Source: Rhodanobacteraceae bacterium (GTDB lineage Bacteria; Pseudomonadota; Gammaproteobacteria; Xanthomonadales; Rhodanobacteraceae). Taken from it: a stretch of DNA of 64,000 bases. How positions within the stretch are numbered: position 1 is the stretch's first letter; the number at the start of each line of letters is the position of its first letter. Under the pieces are notes generated by a model. The model did not search any database and had not been told where the DNA came from. It was given only the letters and a program-made list of their open reading frames with translations. Made by a program: the position numbers and the translations under genes. The stretch lies in the NCBI GenBank assembly GCA_035717365.1, contig DASTIS010000230.1, positions 11,923-75,922 on the forward strand, read 5' to 3'. Positions 45,863 to 62,673 of this stretch are shown piece by piece.

Positions 45863-45878
45863 AGCAATATGTGTGCCA
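45863..45878 (-). promoter_or_regulatory. Sigma-54 promoter motif for the flgB operon
   Basis: The minus strand reads TGGCACACATATTGCT (perfect consensus), 32 nt upstream of the flgB ATG, with GGAG before the start. Confidence 0.8.
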
Positions 45879-46082: not shown

Positions 46083-47003
46083 TCAGTCCGACGGCGCGGG
46101 CAACAGCTCCAGGATGGTCGTCGCCAGCACGTCCGGCTGGAACTTGGCGACGAAGCGATCGGCGCCGACGCCGGCGACCATGGCTTCGTTGAATACGCCG
46201 CTCAACGAACTGTGCAGCAATACTTTCAACCCGCGCCAGGCACTGTTGGCGCGGATCTCGCGCACCAGCGCGTAACCGTCGAGCTTGGGCATTTCGATGT
46301 CCGAGATCACCAGGTCGAAGCGTTCTCCTTTGCGGGCCGACGATTCCAGCATCTCCAGCGCCTCGGCGCCGTTGCGGACCATGACGCATTCGACGTGCAG
46401 TTGCTGCAGCGTGGCATTCAATTGCATGCGCGCCACCGCCGAATCGTCGGCCACCAGCACGCGACGCTGCGGTTGTCCGGACTGGCTGGCGCTGCGCTGC
46501 AGGCGCGGCGATATCTCGGACTGCCGCTGCGCGATGCCGTCGAGGATCTGCTCGACGTCAATTACCGCCAGCAGCGTGCCGTCGGTGCGCGCAATGGCGT
46601 TGACGCGCGGACCGAAACCCAGTTCCGGGGACGGCGCGGCCATGTCGGCGCCGTCGTAGTGGGCGATACGCTCCACCTGCGAAACGAGGAATGCCTGTAC
46701 GCCGAGACTGAACTCGGTGACGATCACGGTGGCCGCCGGCTCGTTCAGCAAGGGCGGGTAGGCCATCGCTTCGGCAAGGTCGATGACCGGGATGGTGTCG
46801 CCGCGATAGTCGAAGCTGCCGGCCAGCAACGGGTGCATGCTCGGCATGTGTTCCATCGGCGGCCGCCGCATCACTTCGCGCACCTTGAATACGTTGATGC
46901 CGAAGATCTGCGGGCCGCCCAGATGGAACGTGAGGATCGCCATGCGGTTGTGGCCGGCAAGGCGGGTGAACTGCTCGACCTTCTGGAGAACGCTCGTTGG
47001 CAT
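46083..47003 (-). CDS. cheV: CheV (CheW-like domain fused to a REC domain)
   Basis: 306 aa from the ATG at 47003. It reads MPTSVLQKVEQFTRLAGHNRMAILTFHLGGPQIFGINVFKVREV (CheW-like), then VLVADDSAVARMQL...LVISDIEMPKLDGYAL (REC). The remaining 500 codons of the 806-aa track ORF are antisense to the MCP-like gene. Confidence 0.93.
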   Translation of the reverse strand: MPTSVLQKVEQFTRLAGHNRMAILTFHLGGPQIFGINVFKVREVMRRPPMEHMPSMHPLLAGSFDYRGDTIPVIDLAEAMAYPPLLNEPAATVIVTEFSLGVQAFLVSQVERIAHYDGADMAAPSPELGFGPRVNAIARTDGTLLAVIDVEQILDGIAQRQSEISPRLQRSASQSGQPQRRVLVADDSAVARMQLNATLQQLHVECVMVRNGAEALEMLESSARKGERFDLVISDIEMPKLDGYALVREIRANSAWRGLKVLLHSSLSGVFNEAMVAGVGADRFVAKFQPDVLATTILELLPAPSD

Positions 47004-47032
47004 CGATGCATTGCGAAGGAATACCAGCCCGG

Positions 47033-47059
47033 TGATCGGCCGGGAGCGCGGAATCTTGA
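47033..47059 (-). promoter_or_regulatory. Sigma-28 (FliA) promoter motif for cheV
   Basis: The minus strand reads TCAAGATT-CCGCGCTCCCG-GCCGATCA, about 30 nt upstream of the cheV ATG. Confidence 0.7.
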
Positions 47060-47115
47060 GCAATGGAGCGACGGCCGGCGCGAGTCGCGCGGTGACAGGC
47101 ACGTGTCCGGATTCG

Positions 47116-47131
47116 TGGCACGCAGCTTGCT
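47116..47131 (+). promoter_or_regulatory. Sigma-54 promoter motif for the MCP-like/flgA operon
   Basis: The plus strand reads TGGCACGCAGCTTGCT (perfect consensus), 94 nt upstream of the ATG at 47226. Confidence 0.7.
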
Positions 47132-47136
47132 TTGAG

Positions 47137-47163
47137 TCAAGTCGTGCGGTGATCTGCCGATGC
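47137..47163 (+). promoter_or_regulatory. Sigma-28 (FliA) promoter motif, tandem to the sigma-54 motif
   Basis: The plus strand reads TCAAGTCG-TGCGGTGATCT-GCCGATGC. It starts 6 nt after the sigma-54 motif and lies about 62 nt upstream of the ATG at 47226. Confidence 0.55.
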
Positions 47164-47225
47164 AGTGGCGGATATCTCGTCGGCATCGCCGACGTCGACT
47201 TGGGTTTCAGGAGTAACGCGCGATC

Positions 47226-48533
47226 ATGGGATTCTTGTTGAGCAATCAGGTCCTCGCCTTGGCCGCAGCGCTGGCAGCGGGCGACCATGAACGAGTGCGC
47301 GCGCTGACACGGCGCCATCCGGCCGCGGCACGTGCCATGGCGCCGTTGTTGTCGGCGCGGGCGCAACGAGAGCGTGAAGATGCATTGTTGCAGGCCGTGG
47401 AGCAGCAGGGGCTGGTGCTCGGCGGAACGCGTACGTTGGGACAACGGGTACAGGAGTTGCAGACTCAGTTGGGCAGCGCGCGTCAACATGTCGACGTGTT
47501 GGCACAGGCTCGCGACGGAATTACGTCGATCCTTCAGCAAGCCCACGCCCCGTTGCAACAAGGCGTGGCCGGCGTCGACGAGGGTAGCCGCGGCATCCGC
47601 GAACTGGATGGCCGCTTGTGTCTGTTGCGCGGAACGTTGTCGGGGATGACCCGCACGCACGAACGCTTCAATGGGTTTTTCGAGGAGATCGCGCGCCTGA
47701 CCGCGGCGATCCAGGACATCGCGCACCAAACCAATCTGGTGGCCCTCAATGCCGCCATCGAGGCGGCGCGGGCCGGTGAATCGGGGCGGGGATTCGCCGT
47801 GGTTGCGGACGAAGTCAAGCAACTGGCCGAGAAGACCGCACAGACCACGGCGGAAATCGAGACCGTGACCGCAACCGTGGGTGAATTCTCGGGCGGCCTG
47901 GAAGAAACGATCGACGGCAGCCTGAAGCGGTTGGACCAGGCCAGCGCGGGCGCCGACGCGGTGCGTGTCGCACTCGAGGGGGCCGACCGGGCGCTGCAAC
48001 AAGCGCTTTCGCAGACTGAAGCCCTGCAGCAAGCCGGCGATGTCCTGGACAGCCAGGTACGCAGCGGGGGTGAAATGGTGGCCGCGCTGCAGCGCGGCCG
48101 CGACGAATGTGCGCGTCAGGTAGACGCGGTAGCGCATGCTGCGATCGCTGCCCAGCAATCCGCGCTGCAGGTCGTGGTGCGGCCGGACACGGCGGATGCC
48201 GCTACCGTCATCCAGGTGCTGCGCGAGTCCTGTGCCGCCCTGGGCCATAGCCTCGATCTGGTGGCGCGCGCGCCGTCGCGGGTGGACCGCCGCTGGCTGA
48301 GCGGGACGGCGTTGCGCACCTGCCTGACACGATTGCAGCGCAGCATGCCGATGCTGCCGGTGCTGGACACGATGCAGGAGAGCGTGCGGCGCCTGGAACA
48401 ATGCCGCGAGAAGCTGGACTCCGCGCTCGCCGACGGTGAAACCCAGCGTTGCGGAGAATTGGTTCCCGTAATGCAGGGCGACCTGGACGCGATCCAGAAA
48501 CAACTTGGCTTGGTGGTGGAAGCATGCGCGTGA
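47226..48533 (+). CDS. Methyl-accepting-chemotaxis-protein-like signalling protein without obvious transmembrane topology, with a Cys-rich C-terminal region of unknown family
   Basis: 435 aa. The hairpin-tip signature of MCP signalling domains is present: [46 protein letters not shown]. There is only one weakly hydrophobic N-terminal stretch ([18 protein letters not shown]). No HAMP domain is recognisable. The stop at 48531-48533 lies inside flgA. Confidence 0.85.
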
Positions 48534-49225
48534 GATGCGAGGCTGCCGTTTCTGCGGTGATGCTGCTGTTCGTGGCGGGGGGCGTCCAGGCCGTCACGCG
48601 GCAGCCGCTCGGCACCTTGCAATCGGCGGCCGTCGAAGCGGTGCGGCAAGCTGCGCCGACGGGGACGCGCGTCGTCGCCGAGGCGAATGAGCTGGATCCG
48701 CGCTTGCGGTTGCCGGCCTGCGCCGGCGCATTGCAGGCACAGGCGCCGGACCTCGGCCGTGGCGCTTCGCGCGTGTCGGTACAGGTATCGTGCAGCGCGG
48801 GCCAGAGCTGGAGCGTGCGCGTGCCGGTGCGCGTGCAACTGTTTCGCAAGGTCCTGGTGAGCAGCCACGGCCTGGCGCGCGGCGACGTCATCGGAGCCGG
48901 TGACGTGCATGCCGAAGAATATGATGTTGCCCGACTGGGTTACGGCTATCTCGTGGACCCTGCGAAGTTGTCCGGTCGTCGATTGCGACGCGCACTGACC
49001 ACCGACACGGTGATCACGCCGGGCATGCTGGCACCGCGCGAGGTTGTCCGGCGCGGCCAACAGGTGCGCCTGGTGGTGGACGCTGGCAGCATCCAGGTGA
49101 GCGCCGCGGGCATCGCCCTGCAGGCCGGCGACCGCGGTGACCTGGTGCGCGTCAAGAGCCTTAGCTGCCAGTGCGAGGTGCAGGGCAGGGTGGATGCGCC
49201 CGGTGTCGTGGGGGTTCTGCCATGA
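48524..49225 (+). CDS. flgA: P-ring assembly chaperone FlgA
   Basis: The ATG at 48524 gives [23 protein letters not shown] (signal peptide). The SAF/FlgA C-domain reads [10 protein letters not shown]...[23 protein letters not shown]...[11 protein letters not shown]. It overlaps the upstream ORF by 10 nt. Confidence 0.9.
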
Positions 49226-49253
49226 TCACGATGGGCGACGTGAACGAGGTTGC

Positions 49254-49280
49254 TAAAGTTATTTCGACCGGGGTCGATAC
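49254..49280 (+). promoter_or_regulatory. Sigma-28 (FliA) promoter motif for flgMN
   Basis: The plus strand reads TAAAGTTA-TTTCGACCGGG-GTCGATAC, 36 nt upstream of the flgM ATG. Confidence 0.7.
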
Positions 49281-49316
49281 CCGGATGGAGTCGGCAGGAA
49301 TAATGCGAAGGCCATC

Positions 49317-49628
49317 ATGAATACGACGATCAATCCTGGCGGTCCCACGGTGCCGCAGCCATCCACGGCCGGCCCCCGGCCCGCCTCCAAAGGCGATGCC
49401 GATGGCAGTGTGTCCGGGCGGGCGCCGGCGCATCCGGCACAGGTCGATGACCGCGTGCAGTTGACCGAATCGGCACGCGCCATCGGCGCGGCTGCGCGGA
49501 ACAGGGACGCGCCGGTCGACACCCAGCGTGTCGAGCGGATCCGCCAGGCCGTCGCCGACGGCACTTACAAGGTGGACGCGCAACGCGTGGCCGACCGCCT
49601 GATCAGCCTCGAAAAGCAGATCGGCTGA
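49317..49628 (+). CDS. flgM: Anti-sigma-28 factor FlgM
   Basis: 103 aa. The N-terminus is disordered and Pro/Gly-rich. The C-terminus is VDTQRVERIRQAVADGTYKVDAQRVADRLISLEKQ, typical of FlgM. Confidence 0.92.
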   Translation: MNTTINPGGPTVPQPSTAGPRPASKGDADGSVSGRAPAHPAQVDDRVQLTESARAIGAAARNRDAPVDTQRVERIRQAVADGTYKVDAQRVADRLISLEKQIG

Positions 49629-49629
49629 C

Positions 49630-50073
49630 ATGCACGACGCTCGGCAATCGGAGCTCGCACAGGTGTGCGAACACGTCATGGTCGACATGCAGGCCGCGGT
49701 GGTCGAATTGCGTGCCGTGCTGGATGCCGAACGCGAGGCGCTTGAACGCCTCGACTCGCTGGCGCTCGATGCGGCGACCTCCGCCAAGGCCGAGCTGCTG
49801 CAGCGGCTGGAATCGCTCGACGCCGAACGCCGCCAGTTGGACGACGTGGCTTCGCGGGAGCGATCGTCCGACACGTTTCAGCACATTTGCGGGCAGCTCG
49901 AAGCCTGCCGGCACATCAATGAAATCAACGGCAGCATCGTCGAGCATCGGTTGCGCGACGTGCGCCAGGCGCTCGGGATCCTGCGCGGTTCCGGCGAAGG
50001 TTCTCCCGTCCTGTACGGTCCGGGTGGTCACGCACAAACGCATGCCGTCCCACGCCCGTTGTCGCAGGCCTGA
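49630..50073 (+). CDS. flgN: FlgK/FlgL export chaperone FlgN
   Basis: 147 aa helical protein immediately after flgM: LDAEREALERLD...AKAELLQRLESLDAERRQL...INGSIVEHRL. Confidence 0.85.
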   Translation: MHDARQSELAQVCEHVMVDMQAAVVELRAVLDAEREALERLDSLALDAATSAKAELLQRLESLDAERRQLDDVASRERSSDTFQHICGQLEACRHINEINGSIVEHRLRDVRQALGILRGSGEGSPVLYGPGGHAQTHAVPRPLSQA

Positions 50074-50092
50074 ACCCGAAGGCACGCAACGC

Positions 50093-51358
50093 ATGCCCAC
50101 CGCCCCCGCTCAGACCGACAGCCCTTTGGGCATCGAGGTAGACGTCCTCCCGTTCGTTCGCATGCCGATCGTCGATCGCGACGCGCAACTGGTCGCCTAT
50201 GACATCTGCCATCAGACCGGTGATGACGCCAATCTGGCGCAGGCGACGCTGCAACTGTTCGAACAGGGTTATCTGGACCTGCTTGCCGGTAACCGTCTTG
50301 CCTTCCTTGCGGTGGATGAGGAACTGCTGCGCGAACACAGGGCCGGGCTGAGATTCGACGAGCGCGTGGGACCGCGTGTGGATGCCCGACTCGCCGCTTG
50401 TAACGACGCCCATGCATTGCTCACGGGCATGGCCGAGCGCGGCGTGCCGGTGATGATTGACAATTTCGTGTGGCCCGATGGGGCGACCGAAGCTGTCACT
50501 CAACGTCTGCGGGAGCTGGTGCAGTTGGCACAGTGCGTCAGCATCGATGTGCGCGGGCACGACGAGTCGAGCCTGGTACGTGCAGTGGCCAGCTTGCGCG
50601 CCGCGGACAGGAACGTGGTTGCGACGGCTTCCTACCTCTACGAGCACCGCACCCAGCGTGCCTGCATGAACCTGGGCTTCGACGCTTTCGAAGGCTCCTA
50701 TCTGTTCAAGCCGGCGGAAGTGCAGCGGGTCGACACGCTGAAACCGAATCGTCTCAACCTGTTGCGCCTGCTGGCCGCGGTGCAGGATCCGGACAACGGT
50801 CCGGTCGAACTGGAAGAATTGATCCGCAATGATGTCGTGCTCAGCTACAAGTTGCTCAGCTGCGTCAATTCGGCCTACTTCGGACTGCCGCGCGAGTTGA
50901 AGTCGCTGCAGCAGGCGGCGGTCTATTTCGGCGTGACGCGCATCCGCAACTGGGTTTATTCGATGGCCATCGGCGACCTCGACGACGCGCCGCCGGAACT
51001 GCTGAAACAGGCCTTGCTGCGTGCGCGCATGGCGGAACTGCTGGGCCGCAACCTGCCGCCCGAGCAACGCGAAATGGCTTTCATCACGGGCCTGTTCTCG
51101 TTGCTGGACACCATCATGGGGTTGCCCATGGCCCGCGTGCTGTCGGACCTGCCGATGCCCGACCCGGTGCGCCACGCGCTGGTCGAGGGCGCCGGTCCTC
51201 TGGCTGCCGTGCTCAAGCGGATTCGTGGATGGGAAAGCGCCGATGTGTCGGCGGCCACCGATGGCGATGGGGGCGACGTCGATTTGGCCGACGCGTACCT
51301 GCGCTCGTTGGAGTGGGCCGAACACGTCTACAGCTTCGTGGAGCGCAAGGCAGCGTGA
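50093..51358 (+). CDS. EAL-like (apparently degenerate) plus HDOD domain signalling protein
   Basis: 421 aa from the ATG at 50093, 19 nt after flgN. The N-terminal half has an EAL-domain layout, but AYDICHQ replaces the (G)YE(L/A)L motif, MIDNFVWP replaces DDFG and SIDVRG replaces KID. The C-terminal half is HDOD: IRNDVVLSYKLLSCVNSAYFGLPRELKSLQQAAVYFGVTRIRNWV. Confidence 0.8.
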   Translation: MPTAPAQTDSPLGIEVDVLPFVRMPIVDRDAQLVAYDICHQTGDDANLAQATLQLFEQGYLDLLAGNRLAFLAVDEELLREHRAGLRFDERVGPRVDARLAACNDAHALLTGMAERGVPVMIDNFVWPDGATEAVTQRLRELVQLAQCVSIDVRGHDESSLVRAVASLRAADRNVVATASYLYEHRTQRACMNLGFDAFEGSYLFKPAEVQRVDTLKPNRLNLLRLLAAVQDPDNGPVELEELIRNDVVLSYKLLSCVNSAYFGLPRELKSLQQAAVYFGVTRIRNWVYSMAIGDLDDAPPELLKQALLRARMAELLGRNLPPEQREMAFITGLFSLLDTIMGLPMARVLSDLPMPDPVRHALVEGAGPLAAVLKRIRGWESADVSAATDGDGGDVDLADAYLRSLEWAEHVYSFVERKAA

Positions 51359-51381
51359 GGCGGGCACACGGGGTTGCCTCA

Positions 51382-51401
51382 GGGGCCACTTGGAAGTGGC
51401 C
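51382..51401 (+). terminator. Terminator-like hairpin after the flgMN/EAL-HDOD operon
   Basis: The arms are GGGCCACTT and AAGTGGCCC (about 7-8 bp usable stem with a small loop), 24 nt after the stop. The downstream T-tract is weak (GTTCGTGT). Confidence 0.4.
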
Positions 51402-51560
51402 CGCCGTTCGTGTGCATTGCCGCGACGCGGGTAACAGCGGGTCGCCCGTTGCGGGCCGGCGGATCTCGGACGCACGGATCCCTGCCACCCAATCCGGCCA
51501 CTCAACATCGTTGCGCCGTCCGCTGGCGGGATACCGCGCGCAAGTGTGCCCGACGGCACC

Positions 51561-52211: not shown

Positions 52212-52478
52212 TCAGCGCAGGCGTTCGCCCGCGGCATAGACTCGCGACAATACGGCGGCCAGTGCCGCGTACAGTTCCGGCGGGATATCCGCGCGCACCC
52301 GGACTGCGGCCAGCAGTGCGGCGGTCGCGGGGTCGGGATGGCGCGGCAGCCCCATGCGTTCGGCCTGTTGCAACATTTGTTCGATTTCGTCGGCACCCAG
52401 GTCGGGACGCAGGGTCGCCTGCGCCGGCGCGGCATCGTCGCGGAAGCGCAATGTGACCGAGCGCGGGGGGGTGTTCAT
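52212..52478 (-). CDS. Free-standing FlhB C-terminal-domain-like protein (YlqH type; no TM region, no NPTH)
   Basis: 88 aa from the ATG at 52478 (ATGA overlap with the upstream stop). It aligns by eye with the post-NPTH part of the FlhB in this window: SVTLRFRDDAAP...GLPRHPDPATAALLAAVRVRADIPPELYAALAAVLSRVYA versus FAVALKYDDGMRAP...EVPLVSAPALARALYHTTRIGQEVPAALYVAVAQILAYVF. Confidence 0.8.
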   Translation of the reverse strand: MNTPPRSVTLRFRDDAAPAQATLRPDLGADEIEQMLQQAERMGLPRHPDPATAALLAAVRVRADIPPELYAALAAVLSRVYAAGERLR

Positions 52479-53641
52479 GCGCTGGCCTCCAGCAGTCGGC
52501 GCGCCAGGCCCGTGTGCCGCAACGGCGTGCCTTGGCGCACGCGCAGTTGCACCAACTGCAGGCCAGAACTCTCCAGCAGCCGCGCGAGGACCGAGGTCTG
52601 TTCCTCGAGTGCATGGACGGCGCCGTCGTGCTGCGCCCACAGGTCCACGTCCACCTTCACGCGGCGCAGCCGGATCTGGCCGTGGATCGCTCCAAGGCTC
52701 GGCAGCTCCAGGGTAAAGCCCAGGGTCCATTGCGGCGGGTTCATGCCCGGGTTGGCGGGGGCGTCCTGTTCGATGCGGATCTGCAATACATCGAATCCGT
52801 CGTCACCACGCACCGGGACCTCGAACATGCACGCCTGCGGTGACGCCGATGGATGGGCCTCGAGCTGCATGATCTCGATGCGCGACATTGCAGCCTGCAC
52901 ATGTTTCAGCATGCCGGTTGCCATGGTGAGCGCATCGGCTGCCGGGGGCGCCGGCAAACGCGCCTGGGGTCGCAATGGCAGGTCCAACAGTGGCGGTGGC
53001 GTTTCGGCGCCCGCGGGCGCCGTCGACACGCGCGCCTGCGGCAGCGGCTGCAGGGCTTGTGCGAGGCGTTGCAGCGCGGCCTTCAAGTCGTAGTCGATCT
53101 GCGTGGCCGGCAGCCGCGCTGGCGTTCGAACGTGCTGCAGCAGGGTGTGTTCCAGTTGCGTTCCGGCGCGCCGCACGGTGTCGCGCAATACGTCGGGGTC
53201 GAGGATGTCGTGGCGGTCGGTGATGGACGCCTCCAGGCGCGCCAGCGCCGCCCGAACCGGTTCCGGCAGTGAGCGCGCTCCTGGAGTGCCCGCCAGCGCA
53301 TGCATATCAGCCAGCAGAGGTTGCAGGCCACCCTGGTGCGGCAGGCGTGCGCGCAGGGCGGCCGCCGTTGCGGTGCTTTTGCCGGGCTGGCCGAGCAATT
53401 CCAACAGCGGTTGTGGACCGTTGCTCAGTACCCGTGCCTGAAAGTTGTGCGGTACCGGTCCGTTCGACGGCGGGTCGGCTTCGACGGTCTGCCCGTTGAT
53501 TTGCAGTATCAGGCGGGTTCCTTCGATCAGCTCCAGCACGCGACCCGACACCACCGACCCCACCGGCCACGGCCGGGGCAGTGTGCCCGCTGCCGCTGCC
53601 ACCCAATCGAGGGTCGCCAGTTGTATCGGTGGCACGCTCAC
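52475..53641 (-). CDS. FliK-like protein (C-terminal hook-length-control/Flg_hook-type domain)
   Basis: 388 aa from the GTG at 53641 (AAGGAG lies 7 nt upstream, downstream of a sigma-28 motif). The C-terminal segment LELPSLGAIHGQIRLRRVKVDVDLWAQHDGAVHALEEQTSVLARLLESSGLQLVQLRV parallels the FliK C-domain. The ATGs further upstream in the track ORF overlap the promoter. Confidence 0.75.
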   Translation of the reverse strand: MSVPPIQLATLDWVAAAAGTLPRPWPVGSVVSGRVLELIEGTRLILQINGQTVEADPPSNGPVPHNFQARVLSNGPQPLLELLGQPGKSTATAAALRARLPHQGGLQPLLADMHALAGTPGARSLPEPVRAALARLEASITDRHDILDPDVLRDTVRRAGTQLEHTLLQHVRTPARLPATQIDYDLKAALQRLAQALQPLPQARVSTAPAGAETPPPLLDLPLRPQARLPAPPAADALTMATGMLKHVQAAMSRIEIMQLEAHPSASPQACMFEVPVRGDDGFDVLQIRIEQDAPANPGMNPPQWTLGFTLELPSLGAIHGQIRLRRVKVDVDLWAQHDGAVHALEEQTSVLARLLESSGLQLVQLRVRQGTPLRHTGLARRLLEASA

Positions 53642-53667
53642 GCGCGAACTCCTTGATCTTTTGCGGG

Positions 53668-53694
53668 TTATCGGCCGCATTCGCATGAACTTGA
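53668..53694 (-). promoter_or_regulatory. Sigma-28 (FliA) promoter motif for the FliK-like/FlhB-C-like operon
   Basis: The minus strand reads TCAAGTTC-ATGCGAATGCG-GCCGATAA (the -10 is identical to the consensus), 26 nt upstream of the GTG at 53641. Confidence 0.75.
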
Positions 53695-53736
53695 ACCCGG
53701 GCGCACCTGGCCGTCGGCCGGTGGAGTGCGAGCGCC

Positions 53737-53763
53737 TCAAGTTGGGTCGGCGATGGCCGTTAC
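53737..53763 (+). promoter_or_regulatory. Sigma-28 (FliA) promoter motif for the STAS-che2 operon
   Basis: The plus strand reads TCAAGTTG-GGTCGGCGATG-GCCGTTAC, 29 nt upstream of the ATG at 53793. Confidence 0.55.
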
Positions 53764-53792
53764 ATCCTGTGCAAGAGACTAGCGGAGTCCGC

Positions 53793-54116
53793 ATGGCGAG
53801 CACGCGAAAACGGAAGTCCCCGCCCGGTTGTCGCGTTCAGCTGGGCGCGGAACTGGTGATCGGCGCCGCCGGCGAGCTCCATGCACAGCTCGGCGAGGCG
53901 CTGCCCCGGTCCGTGCCGGTAGTGCTCGACGCGGCGGCCGTCACGCGGCTCGATACCGCGGGCCTGCAACTGCTGCAGGCGTTCGTGCAGGCGCGCGACG
54001 AACGTGCGGGCGAATGGTGCTGGGAAAACGTCGGCGCGGTGCTGCGCGAGGCGGCCGCGGAACTTGGCATGGAACGGATGCTGAGACTTCCGGACGCGAC
54101 GGCGGCGATCAATTGA
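53793..54116 (+). CDS. STAS-domain protein (anti-sigma-factor-antagonist fold), first gene of chemotaxis cluster II
   Basis: 107 aa from the ATG at 53793 (GCGGAG RBS): VVLDAAAVTRLDTAGLQLLQAFVQ.... It has a DTAG motif rather than the phosphorylatable DSSG motif. Confidence 0.8.
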   Translation: MASTRKRKSPPGCRVQLGAELVIGAAGELHAQLGEALPRSVPVVLDAAAVTRLDTAGLQLLQAFVQARDERAGEWCWENVGAVLREAAAELGMERMLRLPDATAAIN

Positions 54117-54137
54117 CAGAAACCGAGGTTATTCGAC

Positions 54138-54500
54138 ATGGCAAAGATTCTTGCGGTGGACGATTCCGTTTCCATGCGCAACATGGTGTCTTTCACGCTG
54201 CGCGGCGTCGGCCACGAGGTGCACGAAGCGGCGGATGGCCAGGCGGCCCTGGACAAGGCCAAGGCCGGCCGTTTCGACCTGGTGCTGGCAGACGTCAACA
54301 TGCCGGTGATGGACGGCATCACGCTGACGCGCGAGTTGCGCGCGTTGCCTGCATTTGCCGGCGTGCCGATCCTGATCCTCACTACCGAATCCGATGGCGG
54401 GAAGAAGATGGAGGGCAAGGCCGCCGGCGCCACGGGGTGGCTGGTGAAGCCGTTCGACCCCGAACAACTGCTCGCCACGGTTGCGCGCGTGGCGGGTTGA
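54138..54500 (+). CDS. cheY: CheY-like response regulator (cluster II)
   Basis: 120 aa REC: KILAVDDSVSMRNMV...LVLADVNMPVMDGITL...ILTTES...GWLVKPF. Confidence 0.93.
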   Translation: MAKILAVDDSVSMRNMVSFTLRGVGHEVHEAADGQAALDKAKAGRFDLVLADVNMPVMDGITLTRELRALPAFAGVPILILTTESDGGKKMEGKAAGATGWLVKPFDPEQLLATVARVAG

Positions 54501-54507
54501 CGCCGTC

Positions 54508-56454
54508 ATGGGCGCAATCGACCTGAGCCAGTTCCACCAGACGTTCTTCGACGAAAGTCTGGAGGGTCTGGACGTGATGGAGGATGCGCTGTTGGCGCTG
54601 GAAAACGGCGCCAGCGATCCGGAACGGATCAATGCGATCTTCCGTGCGGCGCATTCCATCAAGGGGGGCGCGGCCACGTTCGGTTTCGGCGACGTGGCGG
54701 CCTTCACGCACGTGCTGGAGTCGCTGCTCGAGGAAGTCCGCGACGGACGCCGTGCGGCGGACGAAGAGACCATCGAGTTGTTGCTGCAGTCGGTGGACTG
54801 CATGCGCGGCATGTTGGCGCGGTCGCACAGCGGCGGCGCCGTGGCCGATGCCACCAGTGAGACATTGCGCGAACGTTTTTCGGCGCTGCTCGGCAAGCCG
54901 GCCGAGTCGGCAGCCGCGACGGCGGCGCACATGACCCCGACCGACGGATGGCGCATCGGCTTCCGCCCGCACCCGCACCTGCTGCGGACCGGCAACGACC
55001 CGCTGCGGATGTTCCGTGAGCTGGCCCGACACGGCAGTCTGGTCGTGAAACAGGTGCAGCCGCTGCAGCAACCGCGTCCGGCGTTTGCGGATCTCGACCC
55101 CACCGCCGCCATGCTCGGCTGGGAGGTCGAGTTGCACGGCGATATTCCGCGCAGTCATGTCGAGCAGGTCTTCGATTGGGTCGAGGGCGATTGCGACCTC
55201 GAAATCGAGTTGTTGCATGACCGCCGCGTGCCGGCGCCCGCGGCAACGGCAGTGCAGGACGCCGGCCCGCATGCCGATGCCGGCTCGATGCGGGTGTCCA
55301 TTGCCAAGGTCGACGCCCTGATCAACATGGTCGGCGAACTGGTGATCGCGCAGTCGATGCTGGGCGACATCGGCGAGAACTTCAGCATGGGACGCCTGCG
55401 GCAATTGCAGGGGGGGCTGGCACAGCTCCACCGCACCACGCGCGAATTGCAGGACAGCGTGATGCGCATCCGCATGCTGCCCATCGCGGCGGTGTTCAAC
55501 CGTTTCCCGCGCCTGGTGCGCGACCTCGAGCATCGTCTTGGCAAGCGCGTGCGCCTGGAACTGTACGGAGAGTCGACCGAGGTCGACAAGACCGTACTGG
55601 AGAAGATCGGCGACCCGTTGGTGCACCTGGTGCGCAACGCCATCGACCATGGTTTGGAGAAACCCGCGCAGCGTGTCGCCGCGGGCAAACCCGAGGCCGG
55701 CGTGCTGCGCCTGGAAGCGCGCCACGAAGGCGGCAACGTGGTGGTCGAGGTGGTGGACGACGGCGCCGGGCTGCAGCGTGGGCCGATCCTTGCCAAGGCG
55801 GTGGAGCGTGGCCTGGTACTTCCCGGCCAGGAACTCGGCGACGAAGAGGTGGCCGAGCTGATCTTCCAGGCCGGCTTTTCCACCAACAGCGAGGCTACCG
55901 ACCTGTCCGGACGCGGGGTCGGCATGGACGTGGTGCGTCGCAACGTCAGCGACCTCGGCGGCAGCGTCCGGGTGCGCAGCCGCGAAGGCAAGGGCTGCAC
56001 CTTCACCATCGTGCTGCCGCTGACGCTGGCCATCATCGAAGGCCTGGTTACCGAACTCGGCGACGAGCGCTACATCGTGCCGCTGGTTTCGATCGTCGAA
56101 TCGATGCAGTTGAAGGGAGGCAGCGTGCGCCACGTCGCGGGTGGCGGGGAGCTGTTCCATTTCCGCGACAACTGGCTGCCACTGGTGCGCCTGCACGACG
56201 TGTTCGGCTGCGCGAACGCGGTGACCGAAATCGAGCGGGGCATCGTGATCGTGGCCGAGGCCTGCGGCCGCCGTGTTGGGTTGCTGGTGGACGCACTGGT
56301 TGGCCAGCAACAGGCCGTGATCAAGTCGCTGGAGGCGCACTACCGGCGTGTCGAAGGGATCTCGGGCGCCACCATCGCCAGCGAAGGCAACGTTGCCTTG
56401 ATCGTCGACGTCGACGGTGTCGTGCGCGCCGCCGCGCGCCGCCGTGCGGCCTGA
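54508..56454 (+). CDS. cheA: Chemotaxis histidine kinase CheA (cluster II)
   Basis: 648 aa from the ATG at 54508. The Hpt motif is FRAAHSIKGGAATFGF. HATPase blocks are HLVRNAIDHGLE, DDGAGL and GRGVGMDVV. There is a C-terminal CheW-like domain. Confidence 0.95.
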   Translation: MGAIDLSQFHQTFFDESLEGLDVMEDALLALENGASDPERINAIFRAAHSIKGGAATFGFGDVAAFTHVLESLLEEVRDGRRAADEETIELLLQSVDCMRGMLARSHSGGAVADATSETLRERFSALLGKPAESAAATAAHMTPTDGWRIGFRPHPHLLRTGNDPLRMFRELARHGSLVVKQVQPLQQPRPAFADLDPTAAMLGWEVELHGDIPRSHVEQVFDWVEGDCDLEIELLHDRRVPAPAATAVQDAGPHADAGSMRVSIAKVDALINMVGELVIAQSMLGDIGENFSMGRLRQLQGGLAQLHRTTRELQDSVMRIRMLPIAAVFNRFPRLVRDLEHRLGKRVRLELYGESTEVDKTVLEKIGDPLVHLVRNAIDHGLEKPAQRVAAGKPEAGVLRLEARHEGGNVVVEVVDDGAGLQRGPILAKAVERGLVLPGQELGDEEVAELIFQAGFSTNSEATDLSGRGVGMDVVRRNVSDLGGSVRVRSREGKGCTFTIVLPLTLAIIEGLVTELGDERYIVPLVSIVESMQLKGGSVRHVAGGGELFHFRDNWLPLVRLHDVFGCANAVTEIERGIVIVAEACGRRVGLLVDALVGQQQAVIKSLEAHYRRVEGISGATIASEGNVALIVDVDGVVRAAARRRAA

Positions 56455-56465
56455 AGGCGTACCGC

Positions 56466-56492
56466 TCAAGAATCCGGCGCACACGCCGACAC
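56466..56492 (+). promoter_or_regulatory. Candidate internal sigma-28 motif in the cheA-cheW gap
   Basis: The plus strand reads TCAAGAAT-CCGGCGCACAC-GCCGACAC, within the unusually long 90-nt cheA-cheW spacer. Confidence 0.4.
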
Positions 56493-56544
56493 AGCAACAG
56501 AAGCCGAACAGCGACGCGCTAGCGCGCCACGAGGTAACCAAGCG

Positions 56545-57048
56545 ATGTCCCAGAGCGAACAGGAGGCCGGCAATCTGCTTCAGCAGCTGACCTTCATGCT
56601 GGCCGGCGAGGAGTACGGCATCGACATCCTGTCGGTGCGCGAAATCCGTGCCTGGTCACGCGTCACCCGCATCCCGCAGGCGCCCGAGTACCTGCTCGGC
56701 GTGCTCAACCTGCGCGGTGCCATCGTGCCGGTGCTGGACCTGCGCCTGCGTTTCGGCCTCGCCCGTGAGAGCTATGACGGCACCACCGTGACGGTTGTGG
56801 TGGCGGTCGGTGATCGCCTGTTTGGCGTGGTGGCCGATGCCGTGGCCGACGTACTCGATGCGCGCGAGGACGAGATCAAGCCGGTCCCGGATCTCGGCGC
56901 CGTGGTGGATACGCGGTTCCTGAAAGGGCTGGCGGGGGACGGCGAGCGGATGGTCATGTTGTTGGACCTGGAACGATTGCTGCGCCCGGAGGAAGCCGAG
57001 GCGTTGGATGCGGTACTGCCGGACGCCGCGGAAGTGGCGGCGGCCTGA
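56545..57048 (+). CDS. cheW: Coupling protein CheW (cluster II)
   Basis: 167 aa: [23 protein letters not shown]...[22 protein letters not shown]. Confidence 0.94.
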
Positions 57049-57065
57049 CGATTCGGAGAGTTCGA

Positions 57066-58847
57066 ATGAAGATGAGATTCCGGGCCCTGCCCAAACTGCG
57101 CATGCCGTACCTGAGCGTGAAGGTTCGCCTTTTCGGCATCATCGGCGTGTTGCTGCTGATGTTGCTGGGCACCGCCTGGCTCGGGCTGGACGGCATGTCG
57201 CGCAGCAATGCCAGCCTCGGTCGCGTCTACAACGGGGGGCTCCTGCCACTGTCGGTGTCCGACAAGGTGGCGCGCCGGTCGCTGCAGAATTTCATCGCGC
57301 TTGGTGAAGCGGCTTTCCAGATCGAAAACAAGGCGCTCGTCAAGCAGCAACTCGACGAGGTCTCCAAGTGGATGAAATCCAACGACGACCTGGTCAAGCA
57401 GCTTCAGGGTTACCCCGCCTCGCCGGCCATCAGCAAGCAAATGAAGGCATTCATCGGCGACCGCGCTGACGCGTCGTCGTCGATTGGCGACGTGCGCGCG
57501 GCGCTGGCGCAAGGCGACCCCGGAGCCCGTTCGCTGCTGTACACCGACCTGCTGCCGACCGTCACGATCATGCAGGACGACATGAACAAGCTGATCGAGA
57601 TGCAGGGTGCCGAAGGCAAGCAGTTGCGTGAAGACGCACTCCAGCGCTACGAACAGGTCCACAAGCTGATCCTGGCGGCGCTGATCATCGGCATCGTGCT
57701 GGCCCTGCTGGTGGCGGTACTGGCGATCCGCTCGATCGTGGTCACGCTGAACCGCGCGGTGGCGGTTGCGAACGAAATCGCCGAGGGTCGGCTGGGCCAC
57801 GAAATCATTACCAACGGCAAGGGCGAACTCGGTCAACTGCTGGCCGCGCTGCGCACGATGGATGAACGCCTGTGTGGCATCGTCGGCCAGGTAAGGCTTG
57901 GATCGGACGAGGTGAGTGTGGCTGCACAGCAGATCTCGCGCGGCAACGACGACCTCAGCCAGCGTACCCAGGAACAGGCTTCCAGCCTGGAGGAAACCGC
58001 ATCGTCGATGGAGGAGATGACCTCCACCGTCAAGCAGAATGCCGAAAACGCCAGCCACGCGAATCAACTGGCGCGGGGTGCCCGCGAGCAGGCCGAGCGT
58101 GGCGGCGAGGTCGCCGGCCACGCGGTCGACGCGATGAGCGAAATCGATTCATCCAGTCGCAAGATCGCCGACATCGTCGGCCTGATCGACGAGATCGCCT
58201 TCCAGACCAACCTGCTGTCCCTGAACGCGGCGGTCGAGGCGGCGCGCGCCGGCGAGCAGGGTCGTGGCTTCGCCGTGGTCGCTTCCGAGGTGCGCAACCT
58301 GGCGCAGCGTAGTGCGGCCGCCGCCAAGGAGATCAAGACCCTGATCGGCGAAAGCATGGACAAGGTGCGCACCGGCACCGAACTGGTCCAGAAAACCGGA
58401 AAGACGCTGGTCGAGATCGTCGACAGCGTGAAGAAGGTCACCGACATCGTCGGCGAGATCGCCGCCGCCAGCCAGGAGCAATCGGCAGGCATCGACCAGG
58501 TCAACCGCGCGGTGATGCAGATGGACGAAATGACCCAGCAGAACGCCGCGCTGGTCGAGGAATCTGCCGCGGCGTCGCGCTCCCTTGAGGAACAGGCCTC
58601 CGACCTTGCGCGCCAGATCGCATTCTTCGCGATCCAGCGCGGTGAGGCGGCGTCGACCGAAGTCGGTGCGGTCCTGTCGAGGGCGTCGCAGTCGACCGGG
58701 GCGCCCGACATGGTCGCAGCGACATCGCGATCGGTGGTCGCGGCCCAGCCAGCCCGCACGGTCGCCACGCAGGCAACGGCGCGTGCCAGGCCGGCGCGTG
58801 CCGAAACCCGCGGCAAGGTCGAAGACACGGTTTGGGAAGAGTTCTGA
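57066..58847 (+). CDS. Transmembrane methyl-accepting chemotaxis protein with a C-terminal xWxxF tether peptide
   Basis: 593 aa (GGAGA RBS). TM1 is [20 protein letters not shown]. It is followed by a four-helix-bundle-type periplasmic domain, TM2 ([21 protein letters not shown]) and a HAMP domain. The signalling domain reads [43 protein letters not shown]. The last residues are ...EDTVWEEF. Confidence 0.94.
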
Positions 58848-58850
58848 ACC

Positions 58851-59708
58851 GTGGCCGCCGCCACCGCCGCGTTGGCAGGGGTGGGCCCGCAGAGGCTGGG
58901 CGACACCGAGTTCCAGTTTCTGCGTGACTTCGTCGCGCGACATTGCGGCATCAGCATGGGCGAGCATAAACGCCAGTTGTTGCAGGGCCGCCTGCAGCGC
59001 AGGCTGCGTGCACTGGGCTTCGGCAGCTTCGAGGAATATTGCCGGCTGCTGCGCGAGGATCCGGACAGTGAACTGGACGAGTTTGCCAGTGCGGTCAGCA
59101 CCAACGTTACCGCCTTTTTTCGTGAATCGCACCACTTCGACTTCTTGTCCGGACAACTGCGCGATTGGTTGGCGCGGCGTCCCGATGGGCGCATCCGCAT
59201 CTGGTCGGCCGGTTGTTCTTCCGGCGAAGAACCGTACTCGCTGGCGATGGTGCTGGCCGAGGCCCTGGAGGTGCATCGCGGGCCCGCGGACGCGCTGATC
59301 CTGGCTACGGACCTGTCTCCCGCGGCGCTGGAAACCGCGCGCGGCGGCGTATATCCGCTGCAGCGCATGGAAGGGGTCGGCGCAGAGCGTCGGCGACGCT
59401 GGCTCCAGCGCGGCAGCGGCGCGCACGCGGGCGAGTTCCGGGTGCGTCCGCGTTTGCGCGAGCTGGTGCGCGTGCGCCGGCTCAACCTGCTCGGGGACTG
59501 GCCGATGCAGGGACGCTTCGACGCGATCCTGTGCCGCAACGTGATGATCTATTTCGATACGCCTGCCAAGAAACGTTTGTTCGATCGGTTCGATGCTGCG
59601 CTCCTGCCGCACGGCAAGCTGTTGCTGGGCCACTCCGAATCCATGCACGGCCTGTCCGACCGCTTCTCGTTGATCGGGCGAACCATCTACGAGAAACGGT
59701 CTGTCTGA
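58851..59708 (+). CDS. cheR: Chemoreceptor methyltransferase CheR
   Basis: 285 aa with a GTG start 3 nt after the MCP stop: FQFLRDFVARHCGI...TNVTAFFRESHHFDFL...IWSAGCSSGEEPYSLAM...ILCRNVMIYFD. Confidence 0.94.
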   Translation: MAAATAALAGVGPQRLGDTEFQFLRDFVARHCGISMGEHKRQLLQGRLQRRLRALGFGSFEEYCRLLREDPDSELDEFASAVSTNVTAFFRESHHFDFLSGQLRDWLARRPDGRIRIWSAGCSSGEEPYSLAMVLAEALEVHRGPADALILATDLSPAALETARGGVYPLQRMEGVGAERRRRWLQRGSGAHAGEFRVRPRLRELVRVRRLNLLGDWPMQGRFDAILCRNVMIYFDTPAKKRLFDRFDAALLPHGKLLLGHSESMHGLSDRFSLIGRTIYEKRSV

Positions 59709-59712
59709 AACC

Positions 59713-60366
59713 ATGTCCATGTCGTTCGTCCCGGTTGTCGAGAGATACGACGCGCGCCGCGTGTTGCGCGGTTTCGAGCACCTGCGCCGCTTCCACGAGC
59801 CCGCCACCGGACGCATGTCCGTGAAGATCCTGCCCGGTCAGTACTACGCCTCGGTGCAGGACGAGGTCATCACCACGGTGTTGGGATCGTGCGTGTCGGC
59901 TTGCGTCCGCGACCCGGAAACCGGCGTCGGCGGAATGAACCACTTCATGTTGCCCGGGCCCACCGGCAACGGCGGGCGCTGGGGCGACACCGTGGCAGGG
60001 CGTACCGCGCGTTACGGCAGCGACGCCATGGAGCAGCTCATCAATGCGGTGCTCAAGGCCGGTGGCGTGCGCCAGCGGCTGCGGGTGAAGATTTTCGGTG
60101 GCGGTTGCGTGCTCGCGCGGATGACCGATGTCGGCAAGCTCAACATCGAGTTCGTGCACCGCTACCTCGAAGCCGAGGGCCTGCAGTTGGCGGCCGAGGA
60201 CGTTGGCGGCGTCCAGCCACGCCAGATCCGCTTCTACCCGCATACAGGCCGGACCCAGGTCCGACGCCTGGGCAACGCTGCCGACCCGGGTCTGGCCGAT
60301 CGCGAGCGGCTTTACCTCAAGCAACTGGCGAATGATCCGATAAAGGGTGAAGTGGAGCTCTTCTGA
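59713..60366 (+). CDS. cheD: Chemoreceptor glutamine deamidase CheD
   Basis: 217 aa: [29 protein letters not shown]...KIFGGG. Confidence 0.92.
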
Positions 60367-60373
60367 TATCGCC

Positions 60374-61483
60374 ATGGCCAGGATCCGCGTACTCATCGTC
60401 GACGACTCCGCACTGGTGCGGAAGATGCTGACGGCCATGCTGTCGGAGGATCCCGACATCGAGGTCGTCGGCACCGCGCCGGACCCGCTGACGGCGCGCG
60501 AACGCATCAAGCAGTTGCGGCCGGACGTGCTGACGCTGGACGTGGAAATGCCGCGCATGGACGGCCTGACCTTCCTCGACAACCTGATGCGCCTGCATCC
60601 GATGCCGGTGGTCATGGTTTCGTCGCTGACCGAACGTGGCGCCGAGGTGACCCTGCGCGCGCTGGAACTGGGCGCGGTCGACTTCGCCGCCAAGCCGGGG
60701 AGCGACCTGACCGGCACTTTCGGTAACAGCGCCGACCAGATTCGCGCCAAGGTGAAGGTAGCCGCACATGCGCGCCCGCGTGCCAGGGCGTCGCATGTGC
60801 AGCCGTTGCAGGTGTCGCCACGCTTCAATGCCGATGCCGTCCTCGCGCGCGCCACAGGCAGCGCCGGCAGCGGTGGGCGCATCATCGCCATCGGTGCGTC
60901 CACCGGCGGCACCGAGGCGATCCGCGTCGTATTGACCATGCTGCCGCCGGATGCCCCGCCGGTCGTCATCACGCAGCACATCCCGGCGCAATTCAGCGCG
61001 GCGTTTGCGCAGCGGATGGACAAGTGCTCGGCAATGCGTGTTTGCGAAGCGCGCGACGGCCAGCCGATCCAGGCCGGACACGTGTATATCGCACCCGGCG
61101 ATCGCCACCTGCTGGTAGTGCGCGACGGCAGCAGGCACGTGTGTCGGCTGCACGACGGCCCGCTGGTGAATCGCCACAAGCCCAGCGTGGACGTCTTGTT
61201 CCGCTCGGTGGTGGCGAGCATCGGTGCGGCCGGTGTCGGTGCGCTGCTGACCGGCATGGGTGACGATGGTGCGCGCGGGTTGAAGGAAATGAGCGAAGCA
61301 GGTTCGGCGACGCTGGTGCAGGACGAGGCAACTTCCGTGGTGTGGGGCATGCCCGGGGTCGCCTGGAATTTGGGTGCGGCCGATCGGGCGCTGCCGATCG
61401 AGGCGGTGGCTGGCCGGCTGCTGGAACTGGCGACACAGCCGTTCGCTGCGCCGCGGGCCGACAGGGCTGCGGCGGCGTCATGA
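60374..61483 (+). CDS. cheB: Chemoreceptor methylesterase CheB
   Basis: 369 aa from the ATG at 60374. REC reads [16 protein letters not shown]...[13 protein letters not shown]. The esterase domain reads [13 protein letters not shown]...[17 protein letters not shown]...GMGDDGA. Confidence 0.95.
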
Positions 61484-62673
61484 GGATGATCATCATGCGG
61501 GTAATGGAGTTTCCGGAGCGCGCCGTCGGGCTCCTCGGCAGCATCCTGGCGCTGGTCGTTGTGCTGGTCTGGCCGAATGCGTGGGCGGGCACTTTGGCGG
61601 TGGTGCTGCTGACCGCGTTGTGGATCAGTTTGAACCAGCGCGTATTGCACCGGCCGGGTGCGCAAGCGGCGGCACTTGCCACCAGTGGCGTCGATCTGCA
61701 CGGCGCCATCCGTGACTTGCGTGGCGCGCTGGTGGACGAGCTGGGTCATGCGACGCGCGAGCTGAACCAGGCGCTGGACGTGCTGCGCGATGCCGTCGGC
61801 GAGTTGGGCAGCGGATTCGACGGTCTATCCCACAAGACCGGTTCGCAGCAGCAGTTGCTGCAGCAGATCGTTGACAGCAACAACTGCGAGGGCGGCAGCG
61901 TCCAGGGCTTCATCAGCAAGACCAGCGACTTGCTCGGGCACTTCGTGGGGCTGGTGGTGCACCTGTCGCGCGACAGCCTGCGCATCGTCTATCGCATCGA
62001 CGCGATGTCGCGCGAAATGGACGCGGTGTTCGGCCTGCTCAAGAACGTCAACACCATTGCCGAGGAAACCAACCTGCTGGCGCTGAACGCGGCCATCGAG
62101 GCGGCGCGCGCCGGCGAGTCCGGACGTGGCTTCGCGGTGGTGGCCGGCGAGATCCGCAAACTTGCGCGCCATTCCAACCAATTCAACGAACAGATCGGCA
62201 GCCACGTCGAGCGTTCGCGCCGCAGCATGGAGCAATTGCGTGAGCTGGTCGGCGCCATGGCTTCGCAGGATATGAACGTGGCGCTGGCTACCAAGGGCGA
62301 CATCGATGCGATGATGGCGCGGTTGGGTAACAGCGACAGCCGCATTGCGGCGGTCACCGAAGAGGTCGCCTCGATCGCCCACGGTCTCGGTGCCGACGTT
62401 GCGACCACAGTGCGTTCGCTGCAGTTTGAAGACATCCTCAGCCAGCTCATCCGCCAGACCAACACGCGCCTGGTCGAGCTGCAGGACATCGCCAACCAAT
62501 GCAGCGATGACATCGAATCGATGTTGTGCCTGTCCGCCAGCAGCGAACAAGTCCAGGAGCATGCCGAACGCATGCGTGGCCGCCTGCAGTTGCAACGCGA
62601 GCGCGCGCGCCTGCGCAGCAAGGGACCGGCATTGCAAACGTCGATGAGTGCCGGCGAGATTGACCTTTTCTGA
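61480..62673 (+). CDS. Methyl-accepting chemotaxis protein with a membrane hairpin and no periplasmic sensor domain
   Basis: 397 aa. The ATG at 61480 overlaps the cheB stop (ATGA). Two adjacent TM helices ([34 protein letters not shown]) have essentially no loop between them. The signalling tip reads [40 protein letters not shown]. Confidence 0.9.

Follow-up and report, generated by a model that had tools for sequence, protein, structure and literature searches.

What is the gene of a chemoreceptor doing at the head of a flagellar operon? The question is raised by a 64,000-nucleotide (nt) stretch of the Rhodanobacteraceae contig DASTIS010000230.1 (hereafter, the window), in which a gene encoding a 435-amino acid (aa) protein of the methyl-accepting chemotaxis protein (MCP) family, here called the receptor, immediately precedes flgA, the gene of the P-ring chaperone. 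An earlier note on this DNA, prepared without database searches, proposed that the flgA operon includes a receptor-like protein of the cytoplasm, and the comparison of related genomes bears this out: the arrangement was found in 103/103 loci checked and is not peculiar to one genome. With a probability slightly below 0.6, we interpret the receptor as a lineage-specific cytoplasmic chemoreceptor that is co-expressed with flagellar genes. What is new here is the combination of a soluble MCP carrying an unclassified, sensor-like C-terminal domain with a rigid operonic link to flgA.

A soluble member of the MCP family

The 435-aa open reading frame (ORF) is genuine: its N-terminus aligns with those of 109 homologues, and because the N-terminal methionine is nearly invariant in the resulting 110-sequence alignment, the start codon can be considered fixed. 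The Pfam family MCPsignal (PF00015) matches aa 146-270 with 97.6 bits (cutoff 34.6) and an E-value of 9.4e-28, which, together with fold matches to solved MCP domains (see below), validates the MCP identity originally read off the hairpin tip. No other Pfam domain matched the full-length receptor significantly, and there was no HAMP, PAS or PilZ match at E-values up to 1. PilZ, GGDEF and EAL signatures were absent, according to Pfam, from the full-length protein as well as from 25 C-terminal domains of the family. The NCBIfam models of named chemoreceptors matched the tip region only in part, all of them far under their cutoffs.

The receptor contains no transmembrane segment: the top 19-residue Kyte-Doolittle mean is 1.58 (aa 1-19), compared with 3.37 for the transmembrane MCP encoded at 57066-58847 of the same window. 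The family median of this maximum is 1.08, and a hydrophobic stretch of transmembrane grade is absent from all 110 aligned sequences. Hence the lack of transmembrane, HAMP and PAS regions that had been noticed by eye is borne out by both hydropathy and domain searches. By its lack of a transmembrane segment, the receptor is predicted to be a cytoplasmic chemoreceptor (class IV topology).

Table 1. Features of the receptor locus (positions in the window)
Feature	Position	Strand	Basis
cheV (CheW and receiver domains), divergent	46083..47003	-	ORF translation; orthologues with CheW and Response_reg domains
Sigma-28-like motif, ~30 nt 5' of the cheV start	47035-47059	-	pattern scan
Sigma-54 -24/-12 motif (TGGCAC-N5-TTGCT), 95 nt 5' of the receptor ATG	47116..47131	+	exact match
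Sigma-28 (FliA) motif, starting 6 nt past the sigma-54 motif	47137..47163	+	pattern scan
AGGAG ribosome-binding motif, 12 nt 5' of the receptor ATG	47209..47213	+	direct sequence reading
Receptor coding sequence, soluble MCP-family protein, 435 aa, ATG start	47226..48533	+	ORF translation, Pfam, homologue alignment
N-terminal segment, aa 1-43, four short helices	47226..47354	+	AlphaFold2 (helices 6-17, 21-30, 32-37, 39-42)
Coiled-coil hairpin, aa 44-317, tip AGESGRGF at aa 183-190	47355..48176	+	AlphaFold2, Foldseek, profile search
C-terminal four-helix bundle, aa 318-435	48177..48530	+	AlphaFold2 on the domain alone
flgA, P-ring chaperone	48524..49225	+	Pfam ChapFlgA, ChapFlgA_N, SAF; TIGR03170
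Second sigma-28-like motif, TAAAGTTA-N11-GTCGATA, in the 91-nt flgA-flgM gap	49254..49279	+	direct sequence reading
flgM, anti-sigma-28 factor	49317..49628	+	Pfam FlgM, E 2.7e-15
flgN, export chaperone	49630..50073	+	Pfam FlgN, E 8.6e-16
HDOD-domain protein, final same-strand gene of the conserved block	50093..51358	+	Pfam HDOD

Conserved overlap with flgA and gene neighborhood

The TGA codon of the receptor gene (48531-48533) lies inside flgA, as previously noticed, whether flgA is taken to start at the ATG at 48524, which lies 10 nt within the receptor gene, or at an alternative GTG at 48530, which yields a 4-nt GTGA overlap of a type that is frequent in relatives. Among the matches listed, flgA directly follows the receptor gene in all 103 loci with enough downstream sequence. 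In 100 of these loci, the receptor stop codon overlaps the flgA start codon (ATGA or GTGA in 89, a single base in 11); in the remaining 3, the two codons are spaced by 1-3 nt. Such an overlap is the geometry that translational coupling would require. A deletion or transposon insertion in the receptor gene would probably be polar on flgA.

In the window, the opposite strand upstream of the receptor gene is occupied by cheV followed by flgB, flgC, flgD and flgE. The same layout recurs in the seven loci that were fetched individually (L001-L007), with receptor-flgA-flgM-flgN, an optional PilZ gene and the HDOD gene on one strand, and flgE-flgD-flgC-flgB-cheV on the other. The HDOD gene follows flgN, or flgN and the PilZ gene, in each of the seven, and the conserved block is present even around the most divergent members retrieved with the domain profile (L006 and L007). 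In most loci, cheV divergently adjoins the receptor gene, and every locus examined contains one receptor copy at this fixed position. Judged by gene order, the receptor gene is fixed as the first cistron of a receptor-flgA-flgM-flgN(-HDOD) block.

The neighborhood shows limited variation. A PilZN-PilZ (FlgZ-like) gene is located between flgN and the HDOD gene in L004 (8930-9622) and L006 (11087-11800), and is missing from this place in the window. In Dyella sp. BiH032 (L003, 5270-6000), there is no cheV between flgB and the receptor gene, the place being taken by a gap that contains repetitive-looking sequence in an otherwise intact block. In two further Dyella loci (L019 and L027), tblastn gave no cheV match, with the sequence room for cheV unverified.

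Tandem promoter motifs upstream of the receptor gene

The two motifs that the earlier note had reported in tandem, TGGCACGCAGCTTGCT and TCAAGTCG-N11-GCCGATGC, are present upstream of the receptor gene (Table 1) and are conserved in position in related genomes. Exact matches to TGGCAC-N5-TTGCW occur at three sites in the window (45863-45878 on the minus strand, 47116-47131 and 22520-22535). The first of these, TGGCACACATATTGCT, is located upstream of flgB. The sigma-28 pattern TCAAG-N14-GCCGAT, with at most one mismatch, was found 14 times in the window, compared with 1.36 expected from shuffles, and one of these matches is at 47137-47161 (+).

Promoters were compared in the 72 related loci for which the receptor start was defined and 300 nt upstream of it were available. 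An exact TGGCA[CT]-N5-TTGC[AT] site was detected 5' of the receptor gene in 71/72; its position is -76 to -98 in 69 loci and about -250 in the other two. TCAAG-N12-16-G[CA]CGA[TC] starts 3-4 nt past the sigma-54 motif in 48/72. The one exception is L005, a metagenome-assembled genome (MAG) of Rhodanobacteraceae that is the closest genome-derived relative (protein 74-75% identical): both motifs are retained but are parted from the ATG by an insert of about 260 bp. This insert (5733-5990) has 20-nt terminal inverted repeats, TGTTGACGCTATGCCAAACG, and resembles a miniature inverted-repeat transposable element. Because the sigma-28 pattern is enriched and both motifs occupy a conserved position, they do not look like chance occurrences, and the fact that they keep their place in different genera is good evidence that they are functional.

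Given the sigma-28-like motif of cheV and the motifs of the receptor gene, the 222-bp intergenic region between these genes is predicted to carry divergent flagellar promoters. Additional matches to the sigma-28 pattern were found at 26525, 26586, 35265, 38575, 51561, 53670 and 56466. Many FliA-dependent promoters are suggested across the flagellar and chemotaxis region. No sigma-70-like promoter was found within 46900-51500, and no terminator-like site was found on the plus strand from the receptor start to the end of flgN; four such sites occur in the region, a number not above shuffle expectation.

In Salmonella and Pseudomonas, flgA is preceded by an early promoter, and flgM and flgN are served by a sigma-28 promoter; in Salmonella, the latter two genes form a class 3 arrangement with their own late promoter. 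The locus analyzed here is similar in that an early-type motif, in this case of the sigma-54 kind, precedes flgA, a sigma-28-like motif precedes flgM, and cheV is divergent. It differs in that the receptor gene is located between the early promoter and flgA, overlapping the flgA start, and in that an extra sigma-28-like motif directly follows the sigma-54 motif.

The sigma-28-like motif in the flgA-flgM gap (Table 1) suggests a separate late promoter for flgMN; a strict form of its pattern occurs 5' of flgM in 42/100 related loci. Since flgM has a sigma-28-like motif of its own, that of the receptor gene is not needed to account for late flgM expression and more plausibly serves late, chemotaxis-type expression of the receptor itself, whereas the sigma-54 motif is best read as the early input that flgA needs. 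Thus, the idea of dual early and late input survives in part: the tandem motifs are conserved in position, but late flgM expression can be accounted for without the upstream sigma-28 motif.

Distribution of the receptor family

A Rhodanobacteraceae MAG encodes an identical protein under the annotation 'methyl-accepting chemotaxis protein', the only label that databases give to this gene. Full-length homologues of 431-445 aa are present in Luteibacter, Dyella, Rhodanobacter, Frateuria, Fulvimonas and Mizugakiibacter, and the 109 aligned homologues are 36-77% identical to the receptor.

To collect loci, one genome of each GTDB species was scanned for a degenerate DNA pattern encoding P-x3-DRRW-[LF]-DT; this yielded at least 120 stretches, nearly all from Rhodanobacteraceae genera. 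Together with seven loci fetched via individual proteins, the 120 stretches listed made up a set of 127, in which tblastn detected a receptor-family match in 120; in three others, the contig ends before the receptor. Four stretches, from Roseilinea, Elioraea, Lucifugimonas and Oscillospiraceae, showed no similarity to the receptor or flgA in tblastn and were discarded as chance matches. Overall, at least 115 genome loci contain the receptor, in Dyella, Rhodanobacter, Luteibacter, Frateuria, Fulvimonas and Pinirhizobacter. This distribution is a lower bound because the pattern scan favors members with the exact motif and covers the matches listed only. One locus (L079, CAJCJD010000196.1) is labelled Candidatus Eremiobacteraeota; it has the same cheV-receptor-flgA order and proteins with Rhodanobacteraceae-like identity, and probably represents a mis-binned contig. 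In the searches made, the family of about 435 aa is confined to Rhodanobacteraceae, and it is under selection.

A full-length signaling hairpin

An AlphaFold2 model of the full-length receptor, built with the family alignment, has a mean predicted local distance difference test score (pLDDT) of 88.7, falling at the hairpin turn (aa 181-190). In this model, the N-terminal segment is followed by a single coiled-coil hairpin of about 274 residues, that is, about 39 heptads, or about 20 per arm, and then by a helical C-terminal domain at aa 325-434. The claim of short flanking coiled-coil arms is therefore incorrect: one hairpin spans aa 44-317 and its arms are of full length, and in the family-profile alignment, aa 68-340 are placed on residues 38-301 of the 309-residue Thermotoga TM1143 fragment, gap-free over aa 68-273. 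The family profile matched the cytoplasmic domains of TM1143, PcaY, Aer and Tsr with E-values from 8e-30 to 5e-19, and Foldseek matched the hairpin to the cytoplasmic domains of the same receptors; structures 2CH7, 3ZX6 and 1QU7 were matched by both fold and sequence. TM1143 is of heptad class 44H; the gaps in the pairwise hidden Markov model alignments to TM1143, PcaY, Aer and Tsr are inconsistent with each other, and no class, including 40H, that of the receptors of F6 flagellar chemotaxis systems, is claimed for the receptor.

At the tip, 24 positions of aa 163-203 are invariant among the 110 sequences. Outside the tip, invariant or nearly invariant residues include P32 and A35 in the N-terminal segment, E59-Q60-Q61, R86, R290, E294 and R297, as well as R333, E334, P350, D354, R355, R356, W357 and G404 in the C-terminal part. 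The invariant E59-Q60-Q61 lies close to the distal end of the N-terminal arm and is a candidate methylation or deamidation site. In one member, P0129 (434 aa, from a metagenome contig), the hairpin tip is degraded and the C-terminal DHRW loop is kept; it may belong to a lineage that is losing kinase control.

Compared with Thermotoga TM1143, Escherichia coli Tsr and Pseudomonas putida PcaY, the receptor has the same hairpin fold and a near-identical tip, and its arms are similar in length to those of full-length receptors. The family differs from canonical MCPs in the absence of a transmembrane or periplasmic sensor and of HAMP, in the presence of an extra C-terminal domain, and in tip variants, namely H167 in 'IAHQTN', and 'LVALNA' for 'LLALNA'.

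A family-specific C-terminal four-helix bundle

Modelled alone with an alignment of 25 sequences, aa 312-435 form a compact four-helix bundle (pLDDT 90.2, predicted template modelling score 0.82), with helices at approximately aa 325-348, 361-373, 378-402 and 406-434. The residues conserved across the family are R333, E334, the P350-x3-D354-R355-R356-W357 loop and G404.

The earlier note recognized no family in this region, and none emerged from the searches, as neither Pfam nor profile searches against the PDB nor Foldseek revealed a significant relative. Pfam searches with 25 C-terminal domains at E-values up to 10 matched no family; TarH, 4HB_MCP_1 and PilJ appeared as isolated sub-threshold matches in one member each and were rejected as the identity of the domain. 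A fragment of the bHLH-zipper protein TFEB found in the PDB profile search (E-value 0.006, sharing 'LD-RW') was dismissed as a coiled-coil or short-motif coincidence. Among the generic four-helix bundles that Foldseek matched to it were the periplasmic sensor of a histidine kinase, cytochrome b562, FAT domains and PsbQ.

When searched against 1.84 billion cluster representatives, the domain profile matched 27 proteins. All full-length proteins among these are 431-445 aa long, with the domain at the C-terminus and the same architecture. Two long repetitive proteins, P0134 and P0142, match the profile over short stretches only, and the other matches are shorter proteins that are apparently fragments. 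The bundle is therefore specific to this receptor family.

Comparison with soluble receptors

Few of the many soluble chemoreceptors are understood, the main structural model being the TlpD-type receptors with a CZB domain. TlpD and McpA sense through a four-helix bundle at their C-terminus, which sits at the end of the MA hairpin (bioRxiv 10.64898/2026.01.16.699579). Like the receptor, Helicobacter pylori TlpD (433 aa) and Salmonella McpA are cytoplasmic, of similar size, and devoid of transmembrane and HAMP regions. The order of the parts is also the same: an N-terminal segment, the MA hairpin and a tip-distal C-terminal four-helix bundle.

The differences lie within these parts. The MA hairpin has about 274 residues in the receptor and 178 in TlpD, and the N-terminal part consists of about 43 helical residues rather than PAS; in addition, the receptor gene is fixed in the flgAMN operon. 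The zinc-ligand motif of CZB domains, H-x2-[WFYL]-x21-28-C-x-[LFMVI]-G-x-[WFLVI]-x18-27-H-x3-H, matched 0/110 family members when run as a regular expression, and Pfam CZB matched neither the full-length receptor nor, at E-values up to 10, the 25 C-terminal domains. The top Foldseek matches of the bundle included neither DgcZ nor TlpD. Lacking the CZB signature, the receptor parallels the TlpD/McpA class without belonging to it: the family keeps the TlpD-type layout with a different, uncharacterized four-helix end domain.

Another soluble MCP from a gammaproteobacterium with a Che2-like cluster is Aer2/McpB of Pseudomonas aeruginosa (Che2/F7 cluster). However, Aer2 has a PAS-haem domain and HAMP and is encoded inside the che cluster, whereas the receptor has neither domain and is encoded in a flagellar operon.

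Proposed function and alternatives

By analogy with solved MCP structures, the receptor would form a homodimer. Given the canonical, nearly invariant tip and the full-length hairpin, it is expected to dock to CheW or CheV and to control the CheA kinase in the same manner as other MCPs. The periplasmic sensor would be replaced by a tip-distal module consisting of the N-terminal helices and the family-specific C-terminal bundle, which is the likely input site for a cytoplasmic signal or partner. Within the bundle, the most conserved surface, formed by the R333-E334 pair and the P-x3-D-R-R-W loop, is a candidate ligand or partner site. The receptor would be made early, with the basal-body genes, and again late, with the other chemotaxis genes. 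The flank of the tip resembles those of PcaY and TM1143 and not that of the Tsr-like MCP of the Che2-like cluster, which weakly hints at coupling to the flagellar chemosensory system. In this scheme, we infer transcription, array membership, signal identity and methylation of the receptor.

Several observations weigh against the interpretation of the receptor as a lineage-specific cytoplasmic chemoreceptor. The bundle found only generic up-down four-helix bundles in Foldseek (best E-value 0.026) and has no significant relative in structure or sequence, so that a sensory role is proposed by analogy with TlpD-type receptors. The receptor ends in ...VVEACA and has no NWETF-type C-terminal pentapeptide, which is likewise absent from TlpD and McpA. 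A dedicated partnership with CheV is not required, given the lack of cheV beside the receptor gene in L003, and the degraded tip of P0129 implies that kinase control is maybe not kept in every member. The position in the operon could merely mark the site where the gene was inserted. Finally, our literature search for this family, or for a receptor gene heading an flgAMN operon, found nothing specific. Nothing in the analysis contradicts the current understanding of chemotaxis or flagellar regulation, and the three rival explanations considered below, a scaffolding, a non-chemotactic and a cysteine-based role, are all less well supported than the chemoreceptor interpretation.

The best-surviving of the three, albeit unlikely, is that the protein has no sensor at all and is a scaffold: an MCP made early that would nucleate or position the array at the nascent polar flagellum, with the bundle acting as a localization or oligomerization module. 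Consistent with this, the gene is fixed, in all 103 loci checked, in a flagellar operon that is probably sigma-54-driven, the tip is canonical, and the terminal bundle belongs to no recognizable ligand-binding family. The C-terminal region of H. pylori TlpD is reported to be required for polar localization (PMC13001251), which is also cited in the TlpD preprint. However, the conserved DRRW loop, charged and aromatic, and the RE pair are more suggestive of a binding site than of helix packing.

A bolder form of the chemoreceptor interpretation, which we consider slightly more doubtful than a scaffold, is that the bundle binds a cytoplasmic signal of flagellar assembly or motor state, for which the candidates are a protein of the flagellum and a second messenger processed by the neighboring HDOD and PilZ gene products, and that the receptor relays it to CheA. 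If true, the bundle would be a new kind of sensor domain and basal-body assembly genes would be linked directly, at the level of regulation, to chemotaxis signaling, which would explain the lasting overlap of the receptor gene with flgA across an entire bacterial family.

Even less probable is a non-chemotactic role, in which the protein would act on flagellar assembly or expression via FlgA, FlgM or FliA, or would feed either the HDOD or PilZ proteins of the gene block, which are related to c-di-GMP, or the separate Che2-like pathway. The tight, universal linkage to flgA, flgM and flgN, then to the HDOD gene and, in some genomes, to a PilZ (FlgZ-like) gene is compatible with such a role, as is the complete second che cluster at 53.4-61.5 kb, about 5 kb downstream. 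However, the invariance of the CheA- and CheW-binding residues of the tip speaks for kinase control, and the receptor lacks the PilZ, GGDEF and EAL signatures. Furthermore, P. aeruginosa presumably has the same arrangement from cheV to flgA-flgM-flgN(-PilZ) minus the receptor gene, so that the linkage may reflect an insertion site only.

Whichever signal it may receive, a lineage-specific chemoreceptor with this fixed position and promoter architecture is a tractable case for studying the signals of cytoplasmic receptors, and the timing of receptor synthesis with respect to the assembly of the flagellum.

Cysteines of the C-terminal region

The receptor contains seven cysteines, one at aa 132 and six within aa 295-434, five of which (Cys336, 366, 393, 409 and 434) fall in the bundle. 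The description of the C-terminus as cysteine-rich thus holds for the six residues themselves, but no cysteine column is conserved beyond the close clade. The number of cysteines is 4-9 in the 21 close relatives (at least 61% identity), whereas it is 0-4 in the other 89 sequences, mostly 1-2 and in some cases zero. The respective columns contain cysteine in 20 (C295), 25 (C336), 34 (C366), 3 (C393), 21 (C409) and 18 (C434) of the 110 sequences. Within the close clade, C295, C336, C409 and C434 are conserved at 86-100%, compared with a background of 71%. No conserved histidine or cysteine was found in aa 318-435 across the 110 sequences.

Redox or metal sensing through these residues, which the earlier note had raised as a possibility, is as improbable as a non-chemotactic role, notwithstanding the six cysteines of this receptor, their conservation within its clade and the analogous TlpD CZB domain, which uses cysteine and zinc chemistry, since members outside that clade share no cysteine column and the family lacks the CZB motif. 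Cysteine-based sensing does not appear to be a family property; at best, there may be room for an add-on role limited to one clade.

Codon usage and other genes of the window

An excess of TTG over CTG leucine codons early in the receptor gene had been estimated at about 15 versus 5-6 in the first 130 codons or so. The trend was roughly right, but the numbers were too high: codons 1-130 contain 12 TTG and 4 CTG, and the remainder of the gene 8 and 21, respectively. The neighboring genes favor CTG over TTG (18 versus 7 in cheV, 16 versus 0 in flgE, and 13 versus 6 in flgA). The GC content at third codon positions (GC3) is 0.70-0.73 in codons 1-120, mostly 0.73-0.93 thereafter, and 0.70 again in the last block. 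The TTG excess coincides with lower GC3 in the first 120 codons, where the protein is least conserved; we ascribe no functional meaning to it, nor do we take it as evidence of a foreign origin.

Downstream of the conserved block, the window contains a fliK-like gene at 52475-53803 (-). The second che cluster (53445-61483, +) resembles Che2 of Pseudomonas and comprises STAS, cheY, cheA, cheW, an MCP with 4HB and HAMP domains, cheR, cheD and cheB. A further MCP tip is encoded near 62086, within approximately 61264-62673 (+).

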